In this document: positions 115 to 37,918 of the stretch, piece by piece
Layout: every line of letters starts with the position of its first letter
How positions within the stretch are numbered: the stretch's first letter is position 1
Virus record (IMG/VR): IMGVR_UViG_3300008120_000397
DNA: 37,918 nucleotides
Direction: 5' to 3' (one strand)
Source: a virus
The notes under the pieces: model-generated
What the model was told of the DNA's origin: nothing
The model's input: only the letters and a program-made list of their open reading frames with translations
Databases searched by the model: none
Program-made: the position numbers and the translations under genes

Positions 115-295
115 CCATCACCGGCAGGATCGTGCCTGCTGGCACGCTTGAAAACGTGATGGACGTGTCTCGGTTAGGCATCTGCACCACCACATTGCCG
201 GCGCCGCCGACATACAACGCGCGGCACGGGCCAAGCTCCGTTGTGTCGCTGGCCGTTACGGCTGCGGCGCCGCTCGCCGGGAAAGTTTCGCTCAT
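62..295 (-). CDS. Small hypothetical protein (77 aa), late operon
   Basis: The start overlaps the terL stop (ATGA at 292-295). The stop overlaps the ATG of the LamG gene across the contig junction (TGATG). The sequence is Gly/Ala/Val/Thr-rich and beta-like (VGGAGNVVV...TTATSIVAL). Confidence 0.6.
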   Translation of the reverse strand: MSETFPASGAAAVTASDTTELGPCRALYVGGAGNVVVQMPNRDTSITFSSVPAGTILPVMARRVMAATTATSIVALY

Positions 296-1635
296 TCGTA
301 ATCCCCTCTCATGGCCGCGCGCCGCTGCAAGTGCCGCCGCGCCAATTCACCAAGGTTGATCTGCATTCCGCCCGGCGCTGCCTGGATAGCAAAGCGCGGT
401 TGCTCGGGCGGTTTTTCAGGCCGCAATTCACGCCATGCCATTGCCATGTAGCGAAAGGCGTCCGCCGTGTGACTGGTCCAATCGTGGCGCGGTTCATCCC
501 GAAACACGCGCTTTTTCTCGTCATAGTCGGCCCGGTATTGGCGCAGCGCCTCCAAGCCCTCGCGGCACTTGCTTTCATCAAACCAGCACCGCGCCATGGT
601 CACGCGCGCCGCGTTGATCCCATCCATGACCTTGCCGGCGCGCAACACGCGGGGCACTCGCCCGGTCAATTCCCGGAAAGTCTCGATCCGCGTCCGGCCC
701 GTCCCCAGGTCCCGCGCCTTGGCATCATGCGGCAGGTAATCGTGCCCGTATTGGTAGCCCTTGGCAGCCAGAACCGCCGCGTAATGCGGCAGGCCGTGGC
801 CGTTCGCCTCGTAGTGATCAATCACCCGGATCTGGTTAGCCGCCACCTGGAAGAACCATATGGCCGTGCTGTCACCGACGCCCAAATCCCAAGCCGTATG
901 CACCTTCAAGGCCGGATCAGCCGGCACATGACAGATACGCCCGGCTTCCTCAGCCTGGGCAATCTCTCGCCCGTAATACGCGCCGATAATCGCCGCGTCG
1001 AAGCTGCATTCCCATTCCTGGGCATATTGCTCGGGCGTCATTACCGCCCGCGCGGCTTCCAATTCACCTGGGGCAATTAGGCCCGTCTCGGAAGCCCGTA
1101 GCATGGCCCGAAACCAGTCGGGCGATGATGCGCCCTCCCATATCTCCCAAAAGGCGTTGCGGCCCTTTGGCGTCCCGATAAACGTCGCCCAGCCTTCCCG
1201 ATCAGCAAGCGCAGGGCGGATCACCTCCGGCAAGATGGCCGGGGGCATGTCCGCATATTCATCCAGCACCACGCCATCAAAATACAGGCCGCGTAACCGT
1301 TCGTAGTTTTCGGCCCCGTAAAGCCGAATGCGCGCCCCGTTCGGCAGGTCGCACCGCAACTCGCTTTCGTGCCAAGCCGCTCCCGGTATAGCCCGCGTGA
1401 ATTGCTTCACATAGCCCCAAGCGATGTCCTTTGCCTGGACATATAACGGCGCCACATAGGCGAAGCGCGGGTTAGGCTTGGTGCAGCGCAATGCCGCGTC
1501 AACCAAGTCTGCCACACAGGCCACCGTCTTGCCCGCGCGCCGATGCGCCACAAGGCAGGCCCAGCGTTCCCGGCGCCGATGAAATGGCGCGAATTGCTCC
1601 CGCGCCCGATAGCCAAGGTCAATCACGCGCGACAT
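292..1635 (-). CDS. terL: Terminase large subunit
   Basis: 447 aa. Walker A is VAHRRAGKT and Walker B is GVVLDEYADM. The C-terminal RNaseH-like nuclease motifs are AWDLGVGDSTAIWFFQ and DYLPHDAKARD. It lies upstream of the portal in the late operon. Confidence 0.9.
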   Translation of the reverse strand: MSRVIDLGYRAREQFAPFHRRRERWACLVAHRRAGKTVACVADLVDAALRCTKPNPRFAYVAPLYVQAKDIAWGYVKQFTRAIPGAAWHESELRCDLPNGARIRLYGAENYERLRGLYFDGVVLDEYADMPPAILPEVIRPALADREGWATFIGTPKGRNAFWEIWEGASSPDWFRAMLRASETGLIAPGELEAARAVMTPEQYAQEWECSFDAAIIGAYYGREIAQAEEAGRICHVPADPALKVHTAWDLGVGDSTAIWFFQVAANQIRVIDHYEANGHGLPHYAAVLAAKGYQYGHDYLPHDAKARDLGTGRTRIETFRELTGRVPRVLRAGKVMDGINAARVTMARCWFDESKCREGLEALRQYRADYDEKKRVFRDEPRHDWTSHTADAFRYMAMAWRELRPEKPPEQPRFAIQAAPGGMQINLGELARRHLQRRAAMRGDYE

Positions 1636-1637
1636 GG

Positions 1638-2051
1638 TTAATCCTCCGCGCGGGGCACTCCGGTAACGATGGTGAAGGCCAGCGGCGCGTCAGCATCGCC
1701 GGAAACAGTCTGTTTGCTCTCTGGCGGCATGATGCGGTTCAGCAAGTCCACCGCCGCCGCATGGCCGGAAGGATTGTGCTCATCCGTCGCCCGCGCCAGT
1801 TGCGCTTCGAGAATTTCATCCTTGCGAGCCGCAATCTTCGCCCGTATCTCTGCCGCGACCTCATGACCCGCGCGCTTGGCGTCCGGGGATGGCTGCGTGT
1901 CGGCAGTATAGGCCTCGCGCCCGTTCCCACGTCTGGCGCCCTTGGCAGGCCCGCCGTAGCCGGGACCGTTGCCTTTGCGGGTCGCGCTGGTGCGACCGCC
2001 CATTAGTATTTCTTGCCGCCCTTGCGCTTCGTGCCCATCGTGTCTCTCCAT
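1638..2051 (-). CDS. Putative terminase small subunit (start may be the ATG at 2003)
   Basis: The call rests on position immediately upstream of terL, a basic Gly-rich N-terminus (RKGNGPGYGGPAKGARRGNG) and a helical C-terminal half. An 11-codon out-of-frame leader ORF ends in TAATG at the 2003 ATG. Confidence 0.45.
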   Translation of the reverse strand: MERHDGHEAQGRQEILMGGRTSATRKGNGPGYGGPAKGARRGNGREAYTADTQPSPDAKRAGHEVAAEIRAKIAARKDEILEAQLARATDEHNPSGHAAAVDLLNRIMPPESKQTVSGDADAPLAFTIVTGVPRAED

Positions 2052-2060
2052 GAAAATGCT

Positions 2061-2090
2061 GAAGCCGCTCAGGCTAACCGGAGCGGCTTC
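2061..2090 (-). other. Perfect 10-bp stem-loop between the early-operon end and the TerS start
   Basis: The structure is gaagccgctc / 10-nt loop / gagcggcttc. On the minus strand it is followed by agcauuuuc and then the ATG at 2051. It could be a weak intrinsic terminator or a regulatory or packaging structure. Confidence 0.4.
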
Positions 2091-2151: not shown

Positions 2152-2302
2152 GTTAAAGTGGTGGGCCTAGGTCGCCAGTTATTCCCCGGCTGGGGCGACT
2201 CCGCGGGACGCGTAAGCGTTTCGCCCTTTCGGGCTCGTCAGCCGCGCAAAATGCCGGGCTAGATGTTCACTTGCTTCACCCACCTGGTGAACCCACGGCT
2301 AT

Positions 2303-2330: not shown

Positions 2331-2376
2331 CAGAAAGTCAATGATAAAGCCCCCCTACAAATAATTCAGAGGCTTG

Positions 2377-3033
2377 TCAAGCGGTTTTCAGCGCCATCAG
2401 CCTATCAAGCCCGATGGCCACCTCAAACACCATGCCGTCGGGCCAATCCGTCCGCTCGGAGCATCCCGCCACCTCTAGGCCCTGAATGTGCCAGTCCACC
2501 GTCCGTCGGCTGTAATGCGGCAGGTCATCAGCCGGGGCAGCCTCGCCGCCAAAGCGCGCGGTCAGGGCATCCAGCGCCGCGCCGATGTAGTCCGCCTTGG
2601 TGTCAGGCCGGCAGAATAGCTGGAACTCCTGTTGCCAAAACTCCCGCAGGCGCAGCTTGGTGGCGCGCATGGTCTCGCCGTGCGCTTCGTCCCGGAAGGA
2701 CTTCCCGGCTTGCCAAAGGCACACCGGCAGGCGCTTCATGCGCTGCGCTTGCTGGGGAAACAGGGCGCCAAGCGCCGCAAACGTGCCAGCCGTAGTCTCA
2801 GGCCGCAAATATCCGCGATCAGTGCCGAGAAGCTCAAACCCGGCCTTGATATGCCCGCCAAGATGCTCGGCAGGCGTAAGGATTGGCGTCTCGACCCGGA
2901 GCATAGTCACGGCAGGGTTAAGCGCCTGCCAAGCGTCCCGCACAATCACGGCAATCAGCCGGATCAGCGCGTCGCGTTCTTCGATTTCGCGCTCAGTCCA
3001 AAGGACGGTCGCATTGCCGAATAGGGGTATCAT
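2377..3033 (-). CDS. Stand-alone class II (IIa, Gly/His-type) aminoacyl-tRNA-synthetase-like catalytic core with no anticodon-binding domain
   Basis: 218 aa. Motif-1-like LRVETPILTP, then YLRPETTAGTF, motif 2 GKSFRDE...LREFWQQEFQLF and motif 3 EVAIGLDRLMAL. A strong SD (aaaggag) lies 6 nt upstream of the ATG. It is the last gene of the early operon. Confidence 0.6.
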   Translation of the reverse strand: MIPLFGNATVLWTEREIEERDALIRLIAVIVRDAWQALNPAVTMLRVETPILTPAEHLGGHIKAGFELLGTDRGYLRPETTAGTFAALGALFPQQAQRMKRLPVCLWQAGKSFRDEAHGETMRATKLRLREFWQQEFQLFCRPDTKADYIGAALDALTARFGGEAAPADDLPHYSRRTVDWHIQGLEVAGCSERTDWPDGMVFEVAIGLDRLMALKTA

Positions 3034-3177
3034 GTCGCTCCTTTCAAAATTGCCCGGTCCTGACCATCACGGGATTGTGACAACCCCTTGGGCCGTGTTG
3101 ACGCTCGCCCTTTCGGGGTCGCGCTGGTCAGGTCGATCCGCCAGCCGGGCGCCAGCGTTGAAGCTTCCAAGGGGCAT

Positions 3178-3384
3178 TCAGTCCCGGCGCGGTGCCGGGT
3201 TATCTTGCAGAAACGCGTTCCATATGCGGCAGCGCTCCAGCAGCGCCACCACCGGCCCCGGCACGGCCCTTGTCCCGTCGCACCATCGGCGCACGGTGCG
3301 GGCGTCCACCAAGGCCAAGCGCGCAAAGCCGACCTGGGATAGCCCAAGGTCGGCAAGGGCGGCGCGGAATTGGTCAGGGGTCAT
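3178..3384 (-). CDS. Small XRE-type HTH DNA-binding protein (Aca-like position)
   Basis: 68 aa. The HTH signature is LGLSQVGFARLALVDARTVRRWCDG. There is an ATGA overlap with the upstream ORF. Confidence 0.7.
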   Translation of the reverse strand: MTPDQFRAALADLGLSQVGFARLALVDARTVRRWCDGTRAVPGPVVALLERCRIWNAFLQDNPAPRRD

Positions 3385-5416: not shown

Positions 5417-7432
5417 TTAGACTGCCCAAATGACATCATAATGCACCCCGATTTTACCCTTTCGCTCCAGCCCCTCTATGGCGCGGTTAAATGCTGTTTT
5501 CTTTGTGTCTTGCTTATCTGCGGTTGAGCGGGCGTAAAATTCTTCCCGCCATGCGTGTTTTGTTGTGGCAGCCTTCACGCCTGATTGCGCGGCTTGATAA
5601 GGCACTTCAACGGGCCGCAATGCCATCACATTTTCCAGGATGCGCAGGGCCATGGCCTCGCCATTGGTGAGGCTTGCGCGGGCTTCCTGGGCCATCGTCT
5701 CGGCTGGGGTCACGATGCAGCTTGTGACCGGCTTGCCGCGATGATTGGTGCCGAGGTCAATGCGTTCTAGGCTGAAGGTCCAAGCCCCGTCAATCTCAAG
5801 CTCGCGTTGCTTGGTCACGCGGGCGGTGGATGGGCTATTGGCGTCGGGGCGGCTTATCTCGATCTCGGTGTCAGTGGCGGCGCGTAGCAGGCTATGTCCC
5901 CGCGCGCCTTGGGCTTGGTCCTTGCCTGAATGGTGTATCCAGGCCACATGCGCGCCGGTTGCCTGCCGAATCCGGTCGCTATTCATGACCAAAGAGCCCA
6001 TATCTTCCGGGGCGTTCTCGTTGCCCCCGGCCATGGCGCGGGAAAGGGTATCCATCACCACAAGGGCCACATTCCAGCCCATCTTGGCAGCGGCTTCCTG
6101 AATGGCCGCGATTAACCGGGACGTGTCCGCCTCTGGGTTCAGCAAGTCCAAGGCGACCGGGATAATGGCAAAGGGGATCGGGGCGCCTTCCACCCCGTAA
6201 TGCTTTGCCCATGCTGCCACGCGGTTACGGATGCCGTGGCTACCTTCCAAAGCGCAATAGATCACCCCACCTTGGGCTACCTCTCGCCCGTTCCAGGGCT
6301 TGCCCGTGGCCACATGCAGCGCTAGGTCGCAGGCAAAGAACGTCTTGCCGCAGTTTGACGGGCCATAGAAGACTGACATTGCGGCCCGGATCAGCAAGCC
6401 CTCAACAAAATCATCTCCGGTTAAGGCGGGTTCGACATCTTGGAAATAGACCAACGGCAGGCCGGTGCCGGGCGCGTCGGGGGCTACCTTCTCCACCTCA
6501 ATCTGCGGCGGCTCCGGGTCAGGTTCTGCGCTCCAATGGTCCGGCGCATGGTCGCGCGGCGGCGGTTCATCAGCGCGCGGCATGTATTCCTCGACAATGG
6601 TCCGCCGGATCATGGGGGCTGGCGCGGCGCGCGGCTTGGCCATGCCAGCGCGAAACGCGGCGCCTAGGGTTTTCTGCGCTGCCGGGTAATCCTCGCAGCG
6701 TGAGGCTATCCCGGCCAATGCGGACGCGAGCGCATGAAGCGCCGGGCCTTCTGCCAATTCGCCGGCTGCGACTAGGCCGCCGATCGAGAATGCCGCGCGA
6801 TTGAGCGTGTCATGCTTGGCGCCGTCCGGGGCGCTCATGATCGCCTGGCACTCGTTGTCCAAGGCTTGCAGGCCGTATCGGGTGCCGTCGCCAGATTGGC
6901 GGGGCGGGCTTGGCTGGCGCGGCGCTATGGGCTGCGCTGGCGCGGCGGGCGGGTCTATCAGATCCAACAACCACGCGGGCGCATCGGCAATAGTGGCGGG
7001 GTCAACCACGTCATAGCCATCGCTTGGCGGCGCAATGATGTAGCCGCCGGTCCCGCGAACATCCACGCCCGGCCCGACGCGGGACGCGCTGTTGCGGATC
7101 GCCCGACCGGCAGGCATGGCGAAAAGCAGGTGAACGCCGCCGCTCCGGGTCCGGTGTCGGCGCGTCTGGGGCAGGCGCGCTTCATGCGCTGCCAGCCATT
7201 CCAGGCCTTGGGCGCCGTTTTTGCAATCCAGGTCCAACACGAAAAACCCGGACGCCTCGCCCGTGGGGATGCCGATCATCGCGGCATTGCGGAAGCTGCG
7301 CCGGATTGTCTCCGGGTCGCGTGTCGCATCGCGAAAGCCGTGCGCCGTCATCGGGCGCTTGTGTTCATCGCACGGGAAAACGGGCAGGCCCATTTCTTCC
7401 GCCAGCCATTGGGCGGACGCGGCGAGGGTCAT
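5417..7432 (-). CDS. Bifunctional prim-pol / RepA-like (AAA_25) replicative helicase
   Basis: The N-terminal prim-pol motifs are FFVLDLDCKNG and TRSGGVHLLF. The C-terminal RecA-like domain has Walker A GPSNCGKT and Walker B VALVVMDTL. The ATG at 7432 forms an ATGA overlap with the upstream ORF. Confidence 0.85.
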   Translation of the reverse strand: MTLAASAQWLAEEMGLPVFPCDEHKRPMTAHGFRDATRDPETIRRSFRNAAMIGIPTGEASGFFVLDLDCKNGAQGLEWLAAHEARLPQTRRHRTRSGGVHLLFAMPAGRAIRNSASRVGPGVDVRGTGGYIIAPPSDGYDVVDPATIADAPAWLLDLIDPPAAPAQPIAPRQPSPPRQSGDGTRYGLQALDNECQAIMSAPDGAKHDTLNRAAFSIGGLVAAGELAEGPALHALASALAGIASRCEDYPAAQKTLGAAFRAGMAKPRAAPAPMIRRTIVEEYMPRADEPPPRDHAPDHWSAEPDPEPPQIEVEKVAPDAPGTGLPLVYFQDVEPALTGDDFVEGLLIRAAMSVFYGPSNCGKTFFACDLALHVATGKPWNGREVAQGGVIYCALEGSHGIRNRVAAWAKHYGVEGAPIPFAIIPVALDLLNPEADTSRLIAAIQEAAAKMGWNVALVVMDTLSRAMAGGNENAPEDMGSLVMNSDRIRQATGAHVAWIHHSGKDQAQGARGHSLLRAATDTEIEISRPDANSPSTARVTKQRELEIDGAWTFSLERIDLGTNHRGKPVTSCIVTPAETMAQEARASLTNGEAMALRILENVMALRPVEVPYQAAQSGVKAATTKHAWREEFYARSTADKQDTKKTAFNRAIEGLERKGKIGVHYDVIWAV

Positions 7433-7611
7433 TTTATCTGCTTCGCCTTCCATGTCTCGAAATGCGCCGCCCGTTCCGCGTCTTCCACCGGATCAGGCTC
7501 GCGCTCTTGCAGCGTTTCAAACACGCGCTTGACCCATTGCGTCACTTCGCTATGCGGCTCCGGGCCGAAGTCCAGCGTTGTCATGGGCGGAGGGTAGGGC
7601 GGGGCGGTCAT
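7429..7611 (-). CDS. Hypothetical protein (60 aa)
   Basis: ATGA overlaps are present at both ends. The protein is acidic and helical. Confidence 0.5.
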   Translation of the reverse strand: MTAPPYPPPMTTLDFGPEPHSEVTQWVKRVFETLQEREPDPVEDAERAAHFETWKAKQIK

Positions 7612-37144: not shown

Positions 37145-37866
37145 AGGCCAAACCTCCCACGGTCGGCGTCAAAGTTTTGTGCTACTTGGGCTGGACTGAA
37201 GGCGATGTTGTAAGCGCGCACGATTGCTACATTACACGCTAAAAACCCAAAAGAAGCACTTTGGAATCGCGCTAAAACCATTTGAGTTGCAGCATTTAGC
37301 GATTGGGTAGACGCGGTATCGCCTACAACCAATACGCCATTGACAAAAATTTGCCGCGCGCCGGTAGTATTATTTCTAGTCGCTACGCTTTGTATCCAGT
37401 TACCAGTATTGTAGGTGCTGGTTGTCTTTAGGGTAGAATCTGGATTCCCATTACCGAACATGAGACGGCCCGCGCCAATCGCTAGACCAAAATCATTTCC
37501 TGGACCGCTAACGTCTGCATCCAAAATAGCAAGGCCATCCCACCACTCGCCCGAACTAGACCCGCCGCTAGAAGTGGTATTAATCCACAACTCAAGGGAA
37601 AAAGAAGCGCCTACCGACCTAGGCATTGTAGCGAATTGAGTAGAGCCGTTAAAAGCGATCTGCCCACCATTTGCCGCGCTGAAAGTCGGGCCATTGATTA
37701 ACGTGGCGTTGTTACCGTTCCCGCTAAGATCAGTCCAAGTTGCGCCAGTACCAGGGTAACTTGCCACATTGCCAGTATCTAAATCCATGACAAGGCCGCT
37801 GGTAACGATGCCACCACCACCCGATGGCCTAGCAAGCATTGGGATGGAAATGCCCAGCGAAATCAT
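37141..37866 (-). CDS. LamG/concanavalin-A-like lectin-domain protein 1 (241 aa)
   Basis: Motifs are GLVMDLDTGNVASYPGTGATWTDLSGNGNNATLINGPTF...IAFNGSTQ and the C-terminal VAIVRAYNIAFSPAQVAQNF, typical of Laminin_G_3. The ATG at 37866 overlaps the stop of the 77-aa ORF (seen at 62-64 in the repeat copy). The gene is AT-richer. Confidence 0.7.
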   Translation of the reverse strand: MISLGISIPMLARPSGGGGIVTSGLVMDLDTGNVASYPGTGATWTDLSGNGNNATLINGPTFSAANGGQIAFNGSTQFATMPRSVGASFSLELWINTTSSGGSSSGEWWDGLAILDADVSGPGNDFGLAIGAGRLMFGNGNPDSTLKTTSTYNTGNWIQSVATRNNTTGARQIFVNGVLVVGDTASTQSLNAATQMVLARFQSASFGFLACNVAIVRAYNIAFSPAQVAQNFDADRGRFGL

Positions 37867-37918
37867 CAATACAGCGCCACGATACTCGTTGCTGTGGTCG
37901 CCGCCATCACGCGCCGCG
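37805..37918. repeat. Terminal direct repeat, identical to 1-114
   Basis: 114/114 nt identity with the window start. Confidence 0.95.

Follow-up and report, generated by a model that had tools for sequence, protein, structure and literature searches.

The gene at 2377–3033 and the fold of its product

We analysed a stretch of viral DNA of 37,918 bp (IMG/VR record IMGVR_UViG_3300008120_000397; 59% GC), which is referred to as the window at its full length. The gene of interest occupies 2377..3033 on the minus strand, stop codon included, and encodes a protein of 218 aa. Its ATG start codon is at 3031–3033, and a Shine-Dalgarno sequence, AAGGAG, can be read at 3038..3043 on the same strand, 4 nt 5' of the ATG. 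A first-pass annotation, made from the DNA alone, had pointed out this open reading frame (ORF), quoted class II aminoacyl-tRNA synthetase motifs from its translation and credited it with a Shine-Dalgarno sequence of its own, all of which were found. The alignments presented here refine that description. The protein is specifically derived, as judged by its sequence, from glycyl-tRNA synthetase (GlyRS), and is very probably a glycine-activating, adenylate-forming enzyme; it is called mini-GlyRS hereafter. Its motif 1 is R46-E48-P50, which is followed by the RPE loop (R77-P78-E79). Motif 2 extends from F113-R114-D115-E116 to E131-F132-x-Q134-x-E136, the lid is P172-H173-Y174-S175, and E187 and R194 precede motif 3 (E204-V-A206-I-G208-L-D210-R211).

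The Pfam family PF00587 (tRNA-synt_2b) matched mini-GlyRS with 31.9 bits, above the gathering cut-off of 29.3 bits (E=1.7e-7), which identifies a subclass IIa core. In NCBIfam, three models of alpha2-type GlyRS matched best (E=2.7e-15 to 4e-10), ahead of HisRS and ThrRS models. All of these scores were far under the equivalog cut-offs because the alignment covers the core alone (56, 47, and 38 bits for the GlyRS models, against 312, 243, and 1050 bits), and NCBIfam contained no specific model for the family. PDB sequence searches matched chains that were nearly all alpha2-type GlyRS, whereas PHROGs gave no match for the protein. The AlphaFold2 model (pLDDT 83, pTM 0.82) consisted of the class II antiparallel sheet with no further domain. 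Helix 14–38 and strand 43–46 were predicted at motif 1, strands 104–113 and 131–141 at motif 2, and strand 201–208 with helix 209–217 at motif 3. When this model was compared with the PDB by Foldseek, GlyRS (8T5N, 1ATI) and core-only pyrrolysyl-tRNA synthetase (PylRS) were the top matches (E ~1e-11, TM-score ~0.6), and the best 50 of 475 matches at E<=0.001 were all class II aminoacyl-tRNA synthetases. The profile and structural comparisons thus bear out the first-pass view of a minimal stand-alone class IIa core with motifs 1–3 and place GlyRS at the top.

Mini-GlyRS shares with alpha2-type GlyRS (M. tuberculosis GlyRS, 8T5N/8U2P; T. thermophilus GlyRS, 1ATI/1B76) the class IIa fold, motifs 1–3, and a complete glycyl-adenylate site. 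The common signatures are the RPET loop, FRxE...REFxQxE, the [AS]HY[AS] lid (PHYS in mini-GlyRS), E..G...R.D, and E.[AS].G.DR. Canonical GlyRS, however, has ~440–690 aa and contains an HGTP anticodon-binding domain, an insertion/zinc-motif domain, and an N-terminal 'RRGF...YGG...DYGP', all of which are absent from the 218 aa of mini-GlyRS. The C-terminus lies 7 residues past the motif 3 arginine and PF03129 gave no match, which is meaningful because a 365-aa relative, P0252, did give PF03129 in the same kind of search. The stretch between motif 1 and the RPE loop is only ~27 residues long, so that the GlyRS insertion domain is absent as well. The lack of both domains had been part of the first-pass description. 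With neither domain and with scores under the cut-offs, mini-GlyRS is not a member of the canonical GlyRS family.

The glycine and ATP site

Structures of M. tuberculosis GlyRS (MtbGlyRS) with glycyl-AMS, published in 2025, describe the contacts of the ligand (PMC12208437). Glu165, Glu216, and Glu324 hold the glycine amino group, Glu218 orients Glu324, and Ala326 faces the glycine C-alpha and keeps side chains out. The carbonyl and phosphate are bound by Arg197 and Gln214, the adenine is sandwiched by Phe212 and Arg331 with its N6 read by Glu199, the ribose and metal are bound by Glu284, and Tyr264 of the [AS]HY[AS] lid is near the carbonyl carbon (PMC12208437). By sequence alignment, all 13 residues have a counterpart in mini-GlyRS. 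In the glycine pocket, Glu165, Glu216, and Glu324 correspond to E79, E136, and E204, Ala326 to A206, and Glu218 to Q138. On the ATP side, Arg197, Glu199, Phe212, and Gln214 correspond to R114, E116, F132, and Q134, and in the C-terminal half Tyr264, Glu284, Arg291, and Arg331 correspond to Y174, E187, R194, and R211. This mapping was based on the PDB alignment with a chain numbering offset of 13, and the spacing of the C-terminal motifs was taken from the 1ATI alignment.

The mapped positions were 98–100% conserved in 131 homologues, whose identity goes down to ~27%, except for A206, which is Ala or, in a few of them, Ser; human GlyRS also has Ser at this position. E79, E136, E204, and Y174, the residues of the canonical GlyRS glycine pocket, were 100% conserved, and R114, E116, F132, and R211 were conserved in at least 129 of the 131. 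The motif 2 and motif 3 arginines (R114 and R211) and the rest of the ATP site are thus retained, which supports the adenylate-forming enzyme proposed in the first-pass annotation. Since the substrate site is conserved at an identity of ~27%, an active, glycine-specific adenylate former is expected rather than a pseudoenzyme of the HisZ or POLG2 type. On the strength of this conservation, we consider it very likely that mini-GlyRS forms glycyl-AMP.

A non-catalytic regulatory or structural role, like that of HisZ or of the DNA polymerase gamma accessory subunit, was considered because replication genes are adjacent both in the window and in a 52-kb phage contig with a homologue (L136), and one cellular homologue matched the HisZ model weakly (E=7e-5). 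Pseudoenzymes such as HisZ, however, have lost catalytic residues, whereas the catalytic and substrate residues of this family are conserved across very divergent members, and neither hisG nor a polymerase partner is conserved nearby. It is thus extremely unlikely that mini-GlyRS is non-catalytic. The retained catalytic residues argue against a HisZ-like regulatory role, and a POLG2-like accessory role in DNA replication, which had been raised by the replication context, was rejected on account of the intact catalytic site. A role in DNA hypermodification is also unlikely, since there are no partner genes and the sampled chromosomal copies of Rhizobium, Devosia, and Phenylobacterium stand alone.

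The fully conserved ATP site would also suit a synthase of signal nucleotides, which would make diadenosine tetraphosphate (Ap4A) or a related dinucleoside polyphosphate, or an aminoacylated second messenger, and thereby alter host stress or immune signalling. Class II synthetases, including human GlyRS, can make Ap4A, and the homologue in L136 opens the early operon. However, the glycine pocket (three Glu and Ala/Ser) is as strictly conserved as the ATP site. Glycine-independent Ap4A synthesis is disfavoured because a conserved glycine pocket would be needless for it. Moreover, there are no linked hydrolase or sensor genes, and PADLOC gave no match for the five family members tested. We therefore regard the synthesis of such signals as very unlikely. 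The first-pass annotation had suggested an anti-defence function and dinucleotide polyphosphate synthesis, and nothing that was found in the analysis speaks to either.

Family, gene context, and acceptor of glycine

A word-indexed search returned more than 346 clusters at 90% identity, nearly all of 216–256 aa and most 58–75% identical to the query. An exhaustive profile search of 1.84 billion representatives gave 668 matches at E<=0.001, including 150 at E<=1e-10, and, fragments aside, nearly all of these had 210–260 aa. Many homologues also carry PF00587. Longer relatives differ merely by an insertion at the position of GlyRS insertion 1, and there were no informative fusions among them. The 365-aa relative P0252 is apparently a true GlyRS of unusual compactness, with the 'RRGF...YGG...DYGP' N-terminus, a trimmed core, and the HGTP domain.

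Among deposited phage genomes, 20 contained a homologue. They comprise the Caulobacter jumbo phages CcrSC, CcrBL9, and relatives, Brevundimonas phages, Sinorhizobium phage Phosso, Xanthomonas phage XbC2, and two uncultured phages of ~635 kb. The gene products are annotated as hypothetical, 'aminoacyl-tRNA synthetase', 'serine-tRNA synthetase', or 'RNA synthetase class II'. IMG/VR contributed 70 loci on contigs of 4 kb to 608 kb, and a set of species-representative genomes contributed 61 loci, mostly single chromosomal genes. The cellular carriers are Rhizobium (the tropici, lusitanum, and rhizogenes group), Devosia, Phenylobacterium, and Caulobacter, and their proteins are named 'aminoacyl--tRNA ligase-related protein' by NCBI. 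These chromosomal homologues (L073-L129; for example L110 7959-8729, L075 8001-8765, and L112 7938-8732) have 249–254 aa and are ~35% identical to mini-GlyRS of the window. One genome each of Rhizobium, Devosia, and Phenylobacterium was sampled, and in these three the homologue resides in a non-prophage, housekeeping context. A neighbour-joining tree separated a group A of window-like proteins, encoded by small phages and by a few huge phages, from a group B of jumbo-phage proteins, within which a cellular clade, group C, is nested. This nesting suggests exchange between phages and hosts.

The survey thus uncovered a large family in phages and some alphaproteobacteria, which is previously undescribed, GlyRS-derived, and mainly phage-borne. 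The first-pass annotation had known of no described phage function of this type. This fits the literature, in which we found no description of a phage or cellular mini-GlyRS, but the gene is not unique to the window, since cultured jumbo phages have generically named homologues. Megablast against a phage collection detected no near-identical phage genome. Upstream of eight cellular homologues, Rfam detected no riboswitch and no T-box; the only match was 6S RNA elsewhere in two of the loci. A 2022 review of aminoacyl-tRNA synthetase paralogues lists under glycine only the stress-inducible GlyRS2 and the SerRS-derived amino acid:carrier-protein ligases, and no GlyRS-derived paralogue (PMC9437257).

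As a separate observation, BFVD contains other tiny viral proteins with a class II synthetase-like fold (TM-score 0.5–0.6, 11–13% identity), namely A0A2I7SAH4 (185 aa), A0A141HRQ2 (217 aa), A0A292GIB7 (196 aa), and K7QJG2 of Escherichia phage phAPEC8 (190 aa). Phages may encode additional families of such minimal cores.

The window has an identical 114-bp direct terminal repeat at 1-114 and 37805-37918 and is thus a complete, circularly assembled phage genome of ~37.8 kb. Its mini-GlyRS has been deposited as MCE2759734.1 on a contig of an Acetobacteraceae metagenome-assembled genome. All the neighbouring genes described here are on the minus strand. The upstream replication module includes a Prim-Pol/AAA_25 primase-helicase at 5417..7453 (Pfam and PHROG), which is followed by several small ORFs and, immediately upstream of mini-GlyRS, by a small helix-turn-helix regulator at 3178..3384 (weak HTH_31; PHROG 4779, transcriptional regulator). 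The next downstream gene, at 1638..2051, is presumed to be terS by its position directly upstream of terL, and gave no Pfam or PHROG match. The large terminase gene terL at 292..1635 (Pfam Terminase_6N and Terminase_6C; PHROG 2) begins the late packaging and structural genes. The mini-GlyRS gene is therefore located at the end of the early/replication block, ahead of the packaging genes. In L136, the contig that carries P0014 (10001-17259), the homologue is the first cistron of a rightward early recombination/replication operon, in which the subsequent genes encode a PDDEXK_1 nuclease, an AAA_24 ATPase, and an SNF2/DEAD helicase; this operon diverges from a leftward block with two DNA methyltransferases. 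Given the gene order in the window and the operon position in L136, early expression looks likely.

All-against-all clustering of the ORFs of the 70 viral loci placed the most widespread non-self cluster in only 11 of them, and neither a conserved protein partner nor a carrier-protein gene was found. In the three sampled cellular genomes, the neighbours identified by Pfam are unrelated to each other: gltBD, SLT_2, and DUF459 in Rhizobium, an FMN dehydrogenase in Devosia, and acyl-CoA genes in Phenylobacterium. Since no partner is conserved, the acceptor of glycine is likeliest a universal molecule supplied by the host. Independently of this, NAD salvage genes were noticed 1–4 kb upstream of the homologue in two unrelated jumbo phages, which may be coincidental. 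CcrSC (L140 1074-3676) encodes a NadM-type nicotinamide mononucleotide adenylyltransferase and a nicotinamide phosphoribosyltransferase, and XbC2 (L133 1-1432) encodes NadR and PnuC.

The main idea of the first-pass annotation was a ligase that acts on something other than tRNA. In the present context it would transfer glycine to a side chain of a host or phage protein, a phosphopantetheinyl carrier, a small molecule, or a cell-envelope precursor, in parallel to EpmA, the amino acid:carrier-protein ligases, and AsnA. This is a serious rival. The adenylation site is intact while the tRNA-binding appendage is absent, the phage of the window has no tRNA gene, and the Rhizobium copies adjoin genes for the cell envelope, which include SLT_2 transglycosylase, DUF459/GDSL, and GalU-like genes. 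Non-tRNA targets are indeed described for several truncated class II paralogues (PMC9437257). However, the envelope context of Rhizobium is not conserved because the three sampled cellular genomes differ in their neighbours, and the viral loci lack a carrier protein or any conserved partner. The PDB sequence matches (E<=1) included no amino acid:carrier-protein ligase and no EpmA, and the repeated placement in tRNA arrays and translation-gene clusters of jumbo phages also weighs against such a ligase. Nor is the argument decisive that truncated paralogues always have non-tRNA targets, as the first-pass annotation had held, since core-only PylRS (~275 aa), a top structural match, charges tRNA; genuine synthetases of this kind mean that truncation does not decide against a tRNA acceptor. 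We consider a non-tRNA acceptor possible but, on balance, unlikely.

A tRNA gene was located within 1.5 kb of the homologue in 9 of 23 dereplicated viral lineages, and in L019/L020, L045, L138, and L139 the homologue is inside or at the edge of a tRNA array. The nearest tRNA was tRNA-Gly in L038 (55 nt upstream), L135 (70 nt upstream), and L139 (on both sides); the homologue of L135 belongs to group A and is 64% identical to that of the window. In L066, two tRNA-Gly genes directly follow the homologue, and an upstream tRNA-Arg is slightly nearer. In Phosso, the homologue is grouped with CysRS, an RNA ligase, a peptidyl-tRNA hydrolase, and a tRNA(CUA). The protein itself gives a further clue. 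In the 'SGHVxxF' motif of GlyRS, the Phe stacks on A76 of tRNA together with the motif 2 arginine (PMC12208437). Group A keeps this motif as 'GH..GF', in which the His is invariant (H61, 32/32) and the Phe near-invariant (F66, 31/32). The available evidence on the acceptor leans to tRNA.

We thus favour the following reaction, which would be carried out by a stand-alone class IIa core from alpha2-type GlyRS, probably as a dimer. ATP and glycine would be bound and converted to glycyl-adenylate in the GlyRS-type pocket, and the glycine would then be passed to the 3'-terminal adenosine of a tRNA. Recognition would be limited to the acceptor end because the anticodon-binding domain is absent. The net effect would be an auxiliary, anticodon-blind GlyRS activity during infection. 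With no tRNA gene of its own, the phage of the window would depend on a host tRNA as the acceptor, tRNA-Gly being the simplest candidate; the jumbo-phage enzymes could additionally serve phage-encoded tRNAs. We put the probability of anticodon-blind glycylation of tRNA 3' ends at roughly 40%, and the transfer step is much less certain than the formation of glycyl-AMP.

Several points weigh against this reaction. The complete genome in the window lacks a tRNA gene, and the insertion and anticodon-binding domains, by which canonical GlyRS holds tRNA, are absent. Isolated class II cores are usually poor at charging full tRNAs, and it is not evident why a phage would need additional GlyRS activity. 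After dereplication, tRNA-Gly filled 3 of 11 nearest-tRNA slots, an enrichment that is not significant (P ~0.05-0.11). As tRNA islands are general hotspots of accessory genes, the adjacency may be incidental and is evidence of association only. Finally, the jumbo-phage and cellular proteins (groups B and C) have 'xYxxxD[IV][WFY]' in place of the 'GH..F' motif for A76.

A special case of tRNA glycylation, and compatible with it, is that the enzyme is dedicated to a phage amber-suppressor tRNA(CUA), the copies of small phages being derived or acting on host tRNAs. ARAGORN located a tRNA(CUA) 53–1875 nt upstream of the homologue on the same strand in eight related huge-phage loci (L048, L051-L055, L063, and L064), and another 332 nt upstream of the homologue in Phosso (L132 4594-4669; 171983-172058 of the record PV764938). 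The Phosso gene is labelled 'tRNA-Undet' in GenBank, and ARAGORN labels the CUA tRNAs 'tRNA-Pyl'. An unrelated locus, L033, has a tRNA(CUA) 1.7 kb from the homologue. The D and T loops of these tRNAs are canonical, the discriminator is mostly G73, and the acceptor stems vary. Most host synthetases reject a CUA anticodon, but such a tRNA could be charged by an enzyme that lacks the anticodon-binding domain. In jumbo phages such as Phosso, mini-GlyRS and the adjacent tRNA(CUA) might thus form a self-contained pair by which TAG is read as glycine, while in small phages host tRNAs would be glycylated regardless of anticodon. If true, the pair would be a phage-borne analogue of the orthogonal pair of PylRS and tRNA-Pyl. 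However, most family members, including that of the window, have no such tRNA, and the association represents about three independent lineages. The acceptor stems of the suppressors differ among themselves and from that of tRNA-Gly. In the 10–12 kb around each locus, no in-frame TAG was found in sense-strand genes; TAG occurred only in spurious antisense ORFs. A dedicated suppressor-tRNA synthetase is accordingly quite unlikely, and so is the pair as a whole.

Comparison with known systems bears on both kinds of acceptor. By architecture, the nearest functional analogue of mini-GlyRS is core-only (delta-N class) PylRS (M. alvus 6JP2, ISO4-G1 7R6O/8IFJ; ~275 aa), a genuine anticodon-blind synthetase with a core of similar size. 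It was a top-ranking match by structure, as described above, and a weak match by profile (E=2.4e-4). Its partner is a tRNA(CUA), and several jumbo-phage homologues adjoin a tRNA(CUA). In contrast to the Glu triad of mini-GlyRS, the pocket of PylRS is large and hydrophobic. Additional helices for the binding of tRNA and a C-terminal tail are also present in PylRS. The phage tRNA(CUA) genes, with their canonical D and T loops, are not PylT-like. The PylS C-terminal equivalog gave no match for the protein of the window, and the cellular and Phosso homologues reached 20–22 bits against a cut-off of 178 bits. No homology closer than the shared class II fold is in evidence between PylRS and mini-GlyRS.

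The amino acid:carrier-protein ligases are derived from a methanogen-type SerRS, have a zinc site, and are encoded beside a carrier-protein gene. Mini-GlyRS, in contrast, matches GlyRS models and not SerRS models, and has no carrier gene nearby. The alphaproteobacterial ligases Bll0957 and Atu2573, from Rhizobiales, are nonetheless an instructive parallel: they are truncated class II homologues that activate glycine and have lost the tRNA-binding domains (PMC9437257). An anticodon-binding domain is likewise missing from HisZ, EpmA/PoxA, and AsnA, which are stand-alone class II cores. HisZ, the partner of HisG, is non-catalytic, whereas mini-GlyRS retains the catalytic residues and the protein of the window did not match the HisZ model. 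EpmA and AsnA belong to the LysRS/AspRS subclass IIb (PF00152), whereas the protein of the window has no PF00152 match and its affinities are with subclass IIa. HisZ, EpmA, and AsnA lack the GlyRS glycine pocket, and matches of their models to the family are marginal at most. Alphaproteobacterial hosts normally use an alpha2beta2 GlyRS that is unrelated to the alpha2 type. GlyQ, the catalytic alpha subunit of the bacterial alpha2beta2 enzyme, is confined to a glycine-activating class II core (~300 aa) and needs another component to recognise tRNA. However, its class II lineage is a different one, of the AlaRS-like type, and its partner is GlyS; there is no GlyS-like gene near any member of the family.

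The downstream gap and the significance of the family

The gap of 325 nt between the mini-GlyRS gene and the presumed terS ORF had been described in the first-pass annotation as a structured untranslated region. The gap is real, but its overall fold is only mildly better than that of shuffled sequences (z = -2.2). The features in it are all on the minus strand. Directly 3' of the stop codon, the minimum free energy (MFE) fold contains a hairpin at 2347..2375 that is followed by a weak U-rich stretch. This hairpin may be a weak terminator, although a scan for consensus terminators did not pick it up. A strong GC-rich hairpin at 2061..2090, seen in both the MFE and centroid folds, is followed by AGCAUUUUC and lies immediately upstream of the start of the terS ORF.

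Between these hairpins, a candidate type I hammerhead ribozyme was located at 2202..2246 by Rfam RF02275 (HH9; 26.5 bits, E=5.6e-4). Its RNA can be written as CGCGG-CUGACGAG-CCC-GAAA-GGG-CGAAAC-GC UUAC GCG-UC/CCGCG, where the slash stands for the predicted cleavage position, after the GUC at about 2207. The HH9 scores of this element and its copies (26.5–28.3 bits) are below the gathering score of 52 bits, with model positions 14–59 of 77 matched, and no Rfam match in the window reached gathering thresholds. By inspection, however, the core is complete (CUGACGAG, GAAA, and the GUC cleavage triplet, in agreement with CUGANGA...GAAA...NUH) and stems I–III are present; because stem I is open, the candidate is of type I. 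The same element occurs 3' of the orthologous gene in L004 (2709-2753), L005 (6779-6828), and, twice, L006 (1337-1381 and 1508-1556). The copies differ in their loops, and stem I shows one compensatory double change from G:C to A:U. If active, the hammerhead would cleave the transcript so that the mini-GlyRS message is separated from that of the packaging genes.

If active, mini-GlyRS would rank with the smallest class II synthetase-like catalysts in nature whose amino-acid and ATP site is complete, and its relatives would be the first GlyRS-derived paralogue family. Cultured phages that carry the gene include Caulobacter phage CcrSC (gp229c), Brevundimonas phages, Sinorhizobium phage Phosso, and Xanthomonas phage XbC2. 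If tRNA is charged irrespective of its anticodon, the finding would bear on the minimal requirements of aminoacylation and on how phages handle the sets of tRNAs that they encode, suppressor tRNAs included, and genetic-code engineering could gain a compact orthogonal pair. If a protein or metabolite is glycylated instead, mini-GlyRS would represent a new type of host-modifying phage enzyme. Since members of the family occur in phages of 38 kb and of 600 kb as well as on alphaproteobacterial chromosomes, it is likely that the enzyme meets a recurrent need during infection.

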